Source of the DNA: Octopus vulgaris | Lineage: Eukaryota | Length of the DNA: 64,000 nt | NCBI GenBank assembly: GCA_951406725.2 | Contig: OX597814.1 | Location: 196,726,001-196,790,000, forward strand | Reading direction: 5' to 3' | Part shown: positions 4,101 to 38,532 of the stretch, one piece after another | How the letters are laid out: each line of letters begins with the position of its first letter | Position numbering within the stretch: position 1 is the first letter of the stretch | The notes under the pieces: model-generated | What the model saw: the letters and a program-made list of their open reading frames with translations, nothing else | Databases searched by the model: none | What the model was told of the DNA's origin: nothing | Translations under genes and position numbers: made by a program

Positions 4101-5053
<953 letters not shown>

Positions 5054-20841: not shown

Positions 20842-20914
20842 AATGCAGCTGATGAAGACTAATCAAATCTACCTTGTCAAACGAATTTGAAGAGTCAGAA
20901 ACCGGTTCTGCATT
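20842..20914 (+). ncRNA. Type-I hammerhead ribozyme motif
   Basis: AATGCAG-CTGATGA-aGACT...AGTCa-GAAA-CCGG-TT-CTGCATT: 7-bp stem I, palindromic ACCGGT stem III, A.A mismatch at base of stem II. Confidence 0.75.
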
Positions 20915-36886: not shown

Positions 36887-36906
36887 TATATATATATGTA
36901 TATTTA

Positions 36907-36964
<58 letters not shown>

Positions 36965-37499
36965 CAGCAACACAATTAAGATTCAAGTGAGTTCCAATGA
37001 TTTCAAATGAATATGGTACTTAACTTAGATGCATCAGAATTCTTTATGGTATTACCATAATATAATGTGGGGTGATTATAACCAAGAAAAGAGCAACAAG
37101 AATGGATTAATAGTTTAGTACAATTGTTTCATACTAAGAACAATTTTGTTTAAAGCTGCAAATATTGCAGCAAATACAAATGTCCAGTATTCATCAGCTA
37201 AATCACATATATCTTTTTCAGACATCCTAGAGAATGTCACTATCCTCATGAAGTATTAGGAGTGAGTTTTATGAAATTTAAAGTCAAATTATAAGCAGAC
37301 TTAAAATGCTTTCTAATGATGTACAGTTTTATAAAAAAATTTTTAAAAGATTGTTAACTTCCCAGAGAAGGTGAATCCATCCATAAAATTGCAGATATAA
37401 TTTCCGGGGATATGAGTAAAGCTGTTGATCACATAGCGGTTCATTTCACAACTAAACTGTTGCAAACGGACCTTGCTCTAAGCTGCATTACCCATTTAG

Positions 37500-38066
37500 A
37501 AAGGAAGGTGAAATCACTAGATACGTAAATAAATTATCCAATCATCCCCCAAATATAATAAAATCTTTGGTTAGAAATATTTCCCTAAGAATTTCCAAAT
37601 TGTCATCTAATAATGATATATTTAACTCTCACTCTAAGCATTATAATACAGCATTATCTAAAGAAGGATATAACCAAGAGATTACCTTTATTGGTAAGGA
37701 GAGCTTACATATTCCTAATAATGGAGTGAACATTAACTATGTAAACAAGAATATAGATCGCGCCCGTAATAAAAATAAAAATAGATTTACGGTGACAACT
37801 AATCTAGCGTCCAAACCAAATCGTAAGAATAAAAATATGGACCAGAGTATAGGTAATTTTGATAAAACTAATTTAGATAAATCTAAAAAGGATACAAATA
37901 ATAGTAATAAGAATAATGACTCTGATGGGATCAGTATTAATTCAACTAACCCTAACTCTAATTTTAGAAAATATAATAAGGAATATATAATCTGGTTGAA
38001 TGTTCCTTTTAACTGTGTGATATTATCGGATATATACGGCAAATTCAAATTAATACTAGAAAAAAA
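37500..38066 (+). pseudogene. Penelope-like element RT C-terminal/linker fragment
   Basis: RYVNKLSNHPPNIIKSLVRNISLRISKLSSN..F......Y..AL...GY and IIWLNVPF are PLE-type motifs. Confidence 0.85.
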
Positions 38067-38178
38067 TTCTACTAACAAGGCTTTGGTTGTGCGAGGCTGA
38101 AGTAGAAGACATTTGCCCAAGGTGCTGCTCAGTGGGACTGAACCCGGAACCATGTGGTTGGTAAGCAAACTACTTACA
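38067..38178 (-). mobile_element. SINE family A fragment truncating the PLE ORF
   Basis: GGGACTGAACCCGGAACCATGTGGTTGGTAAGC. Confidence 0.8.
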
Positions 38179-38241
38179 CTTATTCCTGGAAAAATAGAAG
38201 TTGAAAATGCACTGTGAATAGTTAAAATATTTTTTATTAAA

Positions 38242-38299
38242 CTATTTGAAGCTTTAACCGGTTTCACAGTTTAAGCTGGTTTTCAAAAAGTTCAAATAG
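38242..38299 (-). ncRNA. Hammerhead-like motif, U3-A8 core
   Basis: CTATTTGAACTTT-TTGAAAA-cCAG-CTTAAA-CTGt-GAAA-CCGG-TT-AAAG(C)TTCAAATAG. Confidence 0.65.
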
Positions 38300-38497
38300 A
38301 AAGCTTGTTTTTCAAGCTTTACTCAAAGATGGAAAAATCGCAAAGACTGAAACCGGTACTAAAATACTCCCCATGATAAAATTACTGTAGCATTTTCTAC
38401 CTTATCTTATTTTCCTTATACATATGAACTCGCGTGTTCCTCTTCAACCTTCTACACACACACGCACACACGTACACGTACGCATACACACATATGT

Positions 38498-38532
<35 letters not shown>

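Follow-up and report, generated by a model that had tools for sequence, protein, structure and literature searches.

Hammerhead ribozymes in which U3-A8 replaces C3-G8 are already on record. Cervera & De la Peña (2014) describe the pair in hammerheads of Cercyon, a group of Penelope-like elements (PLEs) in Schistosoma mansoni, among about 1,300 hits, and in the cited passages PLE minimal hammerheads cleave weakly and only as dimers (PMC4209133). Perreault et al. (2011) treat U3-A8 as a natural covariation "already proven active in vitro"; among mismatches they find U10.1.U11.1, a natural exception, to be the one tolerated best (PMC3088659). For Poseidon PAc of Anolis, the cited passages report a 3-8 pair demonstrated by compensatory mutation, a PLE hammerhead that is protein-assisted, and insertion in vitro that hammerhead mutants leave unimpaired (PMC11167929). 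Whether cleavage is what maintains Penelope hammerheads is a question raised in passages of three papers (PMC4209133, PMC8557442 and PMC11167929). The novelty implied by an initial annotation of the present locus therefore falls away, U3-A8 being known from Penelope minimal hammerheads (PMC4209133) and from other natural hammerheads (PMC3088659); what is new here is the scale of its use and a natural test set.

The locus lies in a 64,000-nucleotide stretch of Octopus vulgaris DNA (the window). It comprises the following features.

38242–38299, minus strand: minimal type I hammerhead with a U3-A8 core, belonging to a repeat family that we call A (from sequence, fold and energies, and family tallies)
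38286 and 38281, minus strand: U3 and A8 of this hammerhead, with the predicted cut between 38256 and 38255
38280–38286, minus strand: core U3-U4-G5-A6-A7-A8-A9 (read from the sequence; U3 in 47 and A8 in 49 of 52 family copies)
38299–38287, minus strand: 5′ arm of stem I
38255–38242, minus strand: 3′ arm of stem I, with 13 pairs and one bulged C
38278–38276 and 38269–38267, minus strand: CAG/CUG arms of stem II
38266–38279, minus strand: stem-loop II, here a C10.1.U11.1 mismatch and 3 bp (in the family a U.U mismatch, 4 bp and a GUAA loop)
38265, minus strand: G12
38257–38262, minus strand: ACCGGU palindrome, through which stem III is predicted to arise only when two copies pair (cofold of the natural copy L002, double-hammerhead topology)
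38256, minus strand: U17
38188–38303, minus strand: 5′-truncated 3′ fragment of Penelope-like family A, host of the motif (similarity, and RT/GIY-YIG remnants in L131–L134 and L136–L138)

The minus-strand coordinates bear out the anatomy first proposed—UUGAAAA at 38286–38280 in place of CUGANGA, a 13-bp stem I with one bulged C, a CAG/CUG stem II and an ACCGGU palindrome—with the thirteenth stem I pair private to the window copy. Between stem II and ACCGGU the strand reads GAAA, and the type I core positions U4 G5 A6 N7, A9, G12 A13 A14, A15.1-U16.1 and H17 are all present, each being kept in 28–30 of 30 copies of the family A alignment. Positions 3 and 8 are Watson–Crick-compatible as U3-A8, both in the window copy and as the family state. 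Stem I has 13 bp here versus 12 in family A, and stem II 3 versus 4. The usual G-C at 10.1-11.1 is absent, replaced by an unpaired C.U in the window copy and by U.U in family A (U10.1 in 29 of the 30 aligned copies), a mismatch missing from the initial annotation.

This is a real hammerhead motif, not a chance match, given that the core-plus-GAAACCGGT pattern occurs once in the window and in none of 100 dinucleotide shuffles, and that the genome-wide pattern gives 8,993 matches against 43 for its reversed control. No hammerhead family appeared among the 150 of 353 matches listed from an Rfam scan of the window (E≤1), the top listed matches being microsatellite artefacts. A near-perfect inverted repeat around a (CA)/(TA)/(TG) microsatellite at 4483–4668 gives spurious microRNA matches. 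Canonical hammerhead-like motifs stand on the plus strand at 20849 (CUGAUGA, 42-nt stem II, 6-bp stem I) and 53412 (CUGAAGA, ACGU, 5-bp stem I).

The fragment at 38188–38303 is a high-copy repeat, with 40 copies scored among 2,104 first-look candidates. Thirty loci picked by similarity to the window were aligned, and an additional pattern search left seven positions free (3, 7, 8, 10.1, 10.2, 11.2 and 11.1). Among its 52 matches, U stands at position 3 in 47, C in four and G in one; position 8 is A in 49, with G, C and U once each; and with both positions free, the C3-G8 combination is found in none. U3-A8 is thus the inherited state of family A rather than copy-specific decay: the family consensus is U3-A8, not CUGANGA, and these motifs fall outside the CUGANGA pattern, as had been anticipated for standard searches. 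Positions 3 and 8 are altered in 5 and 3 of 52 copies, a rate close to that of the other free positions (2–4 of 52) and in line with neutral decay of inserted copies.

Family A is presumably Neptune-like. At L131–L134 and L136–L138 a decayed frame with RT, Cys linker and GIY-YIG lies upstream of the motif, which follows several hundred nucleotides downstream and in the same sense; L135 and L139 retain only inverted pieces of the frame. Piece by piece, these remnants share 36–71% identity with the long L147 and L148 frames, which match RVT_1 (E 1.6e-9), with GIY-YIG (E 2.2e-4) below the cut-off. The order of RT followed by a C-terminal GIY-YIG is that of EN+ Penelope-like elements. The CX2-5CxxC linker visible in the translations between RT and EN is common to Neptune and Nematis (PMC8557442, in the part cited), and so is not diagnostic of the Neptune clade. 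Nine extended loci held neither a full pLTR-ORF-pLTR copy nor an intact family A ORF; inverted truncated pairs do occur. The host is a coding element, and the window holds a single copy of it, not a unit of a non-coding tandem non-LTR retrozyme. Family A is also present in the run labelled organism D.

The window copy is worn. Five of its 116 nt depart from the family A majority, and three of these lie in stem II, which has lost one pair and the GUAA loop and now carries a private loop. The 5′ truncation at 38303 leaves four bases ahead of stem I. At 38242, 38274 and 38275, about 93% of the depth in run X15 carries another letter. The 58-nt strand folds better than its shuffles (z −3.35; 2 of 200 as good), and its monomer minimum-free-energy (MFE) structure differs from the hammerhead. 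The two-strand MFE structure of the natural copy L002 is a double hammerhead. In the window copy a competing hairpin is 4.9 kcal/mol more stable than that fold, so that the dimer is predicted to misfold. In the 28 of 30 family A copies evaluated (two were skipped for indels), the median gap between the hammerhead dimer and the MFE structure is 8.7 kcal/mol, the dimer being the less stable. The private stem II changes, the truncation and the predicted misfold argue against reading the window copy as intact; these 116 nt are likely a dead fragment.

A second fragment adjoins the first.

38305–38500 (end approximate), plus strand: 5′-truncated 3′ fragment of B2, a second Penelope-like family, lying head-to-head with family A (RT/EN remnants in L034 and L037)
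38321–38363, plus strand: decayed B2 hammerhead with core A3 U4 G5 G6, holding GAAACCGGTA at 38349 (alignment of 20 loci)

Alignment of the 20 loci shows that the supposed sense-strand 3′ half at about 38349 is a complete, decayed hammerhead of B2. The family (1,207 candidates at first look) has a U3-A8 majority in these loci, with stems different from those of family A; its window copy has lost U3, A6 and one stem II pair, and about 95% of the X15 depth carries an A>G change at 38337. Families A and B2, both found by similarity and not by the core pattern, have the same core majority without blastn-alignable flanks. In the runs labelled organisms C and D, contigs with the B-family motif have no listed change at position 3 or 8 at a level of 3% or more. 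One base separates the fragments, which meet at their truncated 5′ ends, A (38188–38303) on the minus and B2 (38305–38500) on the plus strand. Fifteen head-to-head pairs occur in 75 loci, 14 within one family group, and only that of the window is mixed. This mixed join could be a two-template insertion, given that in vitro a PLE enzyme can extend both strands of DNA (PMC11167929, in the part cited); nesting is the alternative.

Exact patterns with an 11–18-nt spacer followed by ACCGGT or ACGT were counted genome-wide, with the reversed pattern as control. With ACCGGT, U3-A8 gives 8,993 matches (control 43), C3-G8 172 (21), C3-A8 264 (34) and U3-G8 170 (26); with ACGT, C3-G8 gives 9,579 (387) and U3-A8 1,696 (1,264), the last near background. 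U3-A8 therefore marks one large class, about equal to the canonical class. We rejected the wording that it is the dominant core of the genome: the canonical ACGU class is equally large, U3-A8 with ACGU is near background, and motifs with a long stem II are uncounted. A survey confined to CUGANGA would overlook roughly half of the short hammerheads that these two classes contain. By eye, most listed U3-G8 matches derive from U3-A8 families by mutation. A repeat with a C3-A8-like core and GAAACCGGT, lacking a clear stem II, accounts for L170 and at least 20 listed C3-A8 matches and inflates the C3-A8 count.

The stems, whose pairing was no part of the search pattern, vary more than the core. Of 84 U3-A8 motifs in the fetched loci, 82 sort into eight groups, all with a pair-compatible 3-8 state. 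Stem I arms form 4.5 of 5 pairs with their own partners versus 1.8 across groups, a value reached by 1 of 40,320 permutations; for stem II pairing within groups, 10 of 40,320 reach the observed value. These permutation values are optimistic, the groups being related and most having been found by a pattern that demanded the core; for the same reason the invariance of the core is circular except in A and B2. Covarying stems hence appear to support a conserved structure more than they prove selection on the core. Groups A, B and C share a link to one kind of ORF (RT/GIY-YIG). Groups D and F have a weak stem II (2 of 4 pairs), and the DNA fetched for groups D, E and F (L171–L179 and L190) contains no PLE frame; these are possibly non-autonomous or very truncated elements. 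The same-strand pair at L145 is a 3.5-kb tandem duplication without a PLE frame.

The initial annotation saw in U3-A8 a selected variant rather than decay. That the state is not copy-specific (52 copies) agrees with this, and a constant core alongside stems I and II that differ between families in a compensated way lends indirect support to selection on the master lineage.

How strictly the 3-8 pair is needed can be approached through a related lineage. Most of the listed C3-G8 matches with ACCGGT belong to a 359–360-bp tandem retrozyme-like family, which contains U3-A8, C3.A8 and C3-G8 subfamilies (L149, L150, L151, L153–L156, L093, L099 and L102–L105). The C3.A8 subfamily occurs in tandem and at several loci and has thus spread in the genome, which would speak against a strict need for the pair. 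Together with the unimpaired insertion of PLE hammerhead mutants in vitro, this spread leaves a need for cleavage unestablished. A 20-row tree built with positions 3 and 8 masked places the U3-A8 rows outside a C3.A8/C3-G8 clade (99/97), and under the midpoint root this suggests that U3-A8 is the older state in the lineage. C7-G8 is a CpG, and C3.A8 could also stem from deamination. Searching the retrozyme pattern with positions 3 and 8 free and loop length fixed gave one match, and a further search six (U3 in three, C3 in two and A3 in one, all with A8).

We consider it probable that the locus holds an inherited U3-A8 hammerhead from the 3′ end of a high-copy Penelope-like family, present as a truncated, likely dead fragment that came to lie beside another family's ORF by chance. 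From the established anatomy, inheritance, host linkage and covarying stems we infer how an active master element might work. Two copies, in tandem pLTRs or on two RNAs, would pair through ACCGGU to create stem III, with U3-A8 standing in for C3-G8 in the active fold. Self-cleavage of the RNA after U17 would follow, at a low rate and probably assisted by the element's protein, trimming the precursor. Selection would act on the master lineage, and inserted copies, the window copy included, would decay neutrally. A counterpoint is that C>U and G>A are the commonest transitions in an AT-rich genome.

It seems unlikely that the motif is instead retained for its structure or as a binding signal for protein, or that its cleavage depends little on the 3-8 pair, with U3-A8 a tolerated state reached through two transitions and fixed by descent. 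Such an account is consistent with the anole PLE, for which in vitro insertion is reported to be unaffected by hammerhead mutations, with no RNA-seq ends observed at the cleavage site (PMC11167929, in the part cited), as it is with the tandem, multi-locus C3.A8 retrozymes, the loss of G10.1-C11.1 in family A and the weak stem II of groups D and F. It sits poorly with the rarity of the mismatch classes beside ACCGGU (C3-A8 264 and U3-G8 170 versus U3-A8 8,993), with pair-compatibility in 8 of 8 groups and with the reported in vitro activity of U3-A8 (PMC3088659, in the passage cited).

We give little credence to a second account, by which AT-biased mutation ruined the motif in the master element, which then copied it as a dead passenger. 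C>U and G>A are the changes expected of decay, in a window with a GC content of about 28–42% per 2 kb, and family A has lost its G10.1-C11.1 pair; yet the sequences of stems I and II vary between groups while remaining paired, and A and B2, with unalignable flanks, both retain G5, G12 and CCGG.

Our preferred reading separates the U3-A8 hammerhead from the ORF beside it, around which four features are arranged.

37469–38066, plus strand: part of the interior of an ORF from a different Penelope-like family, which does not host the U3-A8 motif (87–88% identity to L140–L144; no tblastn cross-matches with families A, B or C)
38065–38177, plus strand: SINE-like fragment of an interspersed repeat, truncating the ORF (8 of 20 unrelated 9.9-kb loci contain matches)
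36899–37451, minus strand: inverted 3′ end of the adjacent ORF's family
37114–37202, minus strand: that family's own canonical hammerhead, with a CUGAUGA core, a 60-nt stem II and palindromic ACAAUUGU (same motif in L140–L144)

The ORF runs from 37456 to 38100, its stop lying inside the insert, which we assume to be a SINE. The ORF's motifs and the inverted-end structure lead us to take it for a PLE, presumably of a Nematis-like family. Pfam gave no match for the window ORF or for the long copy L142, and tblastn no cross-match of this family with families A, B or C at E≤1e-6. Long copies of the family are 92–95% identical, with open stretches of more than 500 aa, and long Asn-rich insertions lie between RT and the Cys linker in L142 (2242–3165) and L143. 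The hammerhead, with its unusually long 60-nt stem II, recurs in all five long copies, L140–L144 (6 of 7 motifs C3-G8, one U3-G8).

The U3-A8 motif had been placed about 180 bp after this PLE ORF and tied to it in antisense. The distance is right when taken from the end of PLE homology (38066; 176 bp), not from the ORF stop in the SINE-like insert. The tie to the ORF gives way, the ORF being of another family (87–88% identity to L140–L144) with a C3-G8 hammerhead of its own. On that ground the antisense relation is a matter of chance nesting: the motif is sense to its own family A frame, and the U3-A8 pattern is absent from the fetched flanks of 19 of 19 other loci of the ORF family, where the sequence continues without it. 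That the motif is an antisense ribozyme of the adjacent element, working with the sense half at 38349, is barely credible: proximity (176 bp) and an ACCGGU in both motifs speak for it, against the 19 of 19 loci, the family's own C3-G8 motif, the intervening SINE-like insert, the opposite strands of the two motifs and the two core mutations of the sense one.

Extending the preferred reading of an inherited family A hammerhead, we offer a broader scenario as a speculation more doubtful than probable. One PLE branch may have switched once to U3-A8 and kept it through about 50% protein divergence, until it came to provide about half of the short hammerheads counted (8,993 versus 9,579). Family A, with its U.U, would cut as a protein-assisted dimer, and the head-to-head join would record one insertion templated by two RNAs. 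Natural C3-G8, C3.A8 and U3-A8 forms in near-identical retrozyme backgrounds offer an easy test of whether cleavage is why Penelope hammerheads are kept.

A literature search judged by titles and the starts of abstracts listed no paper on such motifs in octopus, and the words "octopus" and "cephalopod" do not occur in the main text of PMC7229834. Two traits of minimal hammerheads recur here, a palindromic stem III that would permit a dimer fold (predicted from the MFE of the L002 dimer) and a PLE-terminal location sense to the ORF (L131–L134 and L136–L138). A close counterpart is Cercyon as described in the cited passages of PMC4209133: its type I minimal motifs sit at the ends of PLEs, are numerous, show the U3-A8 covariation and belong for the most part to single truncated copies; opposite-strand pairs occur, and palindromic stems III imply dimers. 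Unlike Cercyon, family A has a short stem II, U.U for G10.1-C11.1 and no extra base after A9; its stem I is long and bulged, its roughly 9,000 exact copies are about as many as the canonical ACGU class, and its host group is another. With the natural variants of PMC3088659 it shares both U3-A8 and U10.1.U11.1, here combined in one predicted ribozyme, a combination that the cited part of that paper does not state; the C.U of the window copy goes beyond its passage on U.U.

Poseidon PAc likewise has a hammerhead in a PLE pLTR, and its enzyme extends both DNA strands (PMC11167929, in the part cited). Its C3-G8 core overlaps the start of the ORF, whereas the U3-A8 core of family A lies several hundred nucleotides downstream of the ORF. 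Like animal non-LTR retrozymes, as the cited parts of PMC7229834 and bioRxiv 10.64898/2026.07.22.740005 present them, the locus has type I hammerheads in PLE-related repeats, and the 359–360-bp family here carries the same ACCGGU. Those retrozymes are non-coding tandem units of 150–400 bp with one hammerhead each; the family A motif, in contrast, forms the 3′ end of a coding PLE.
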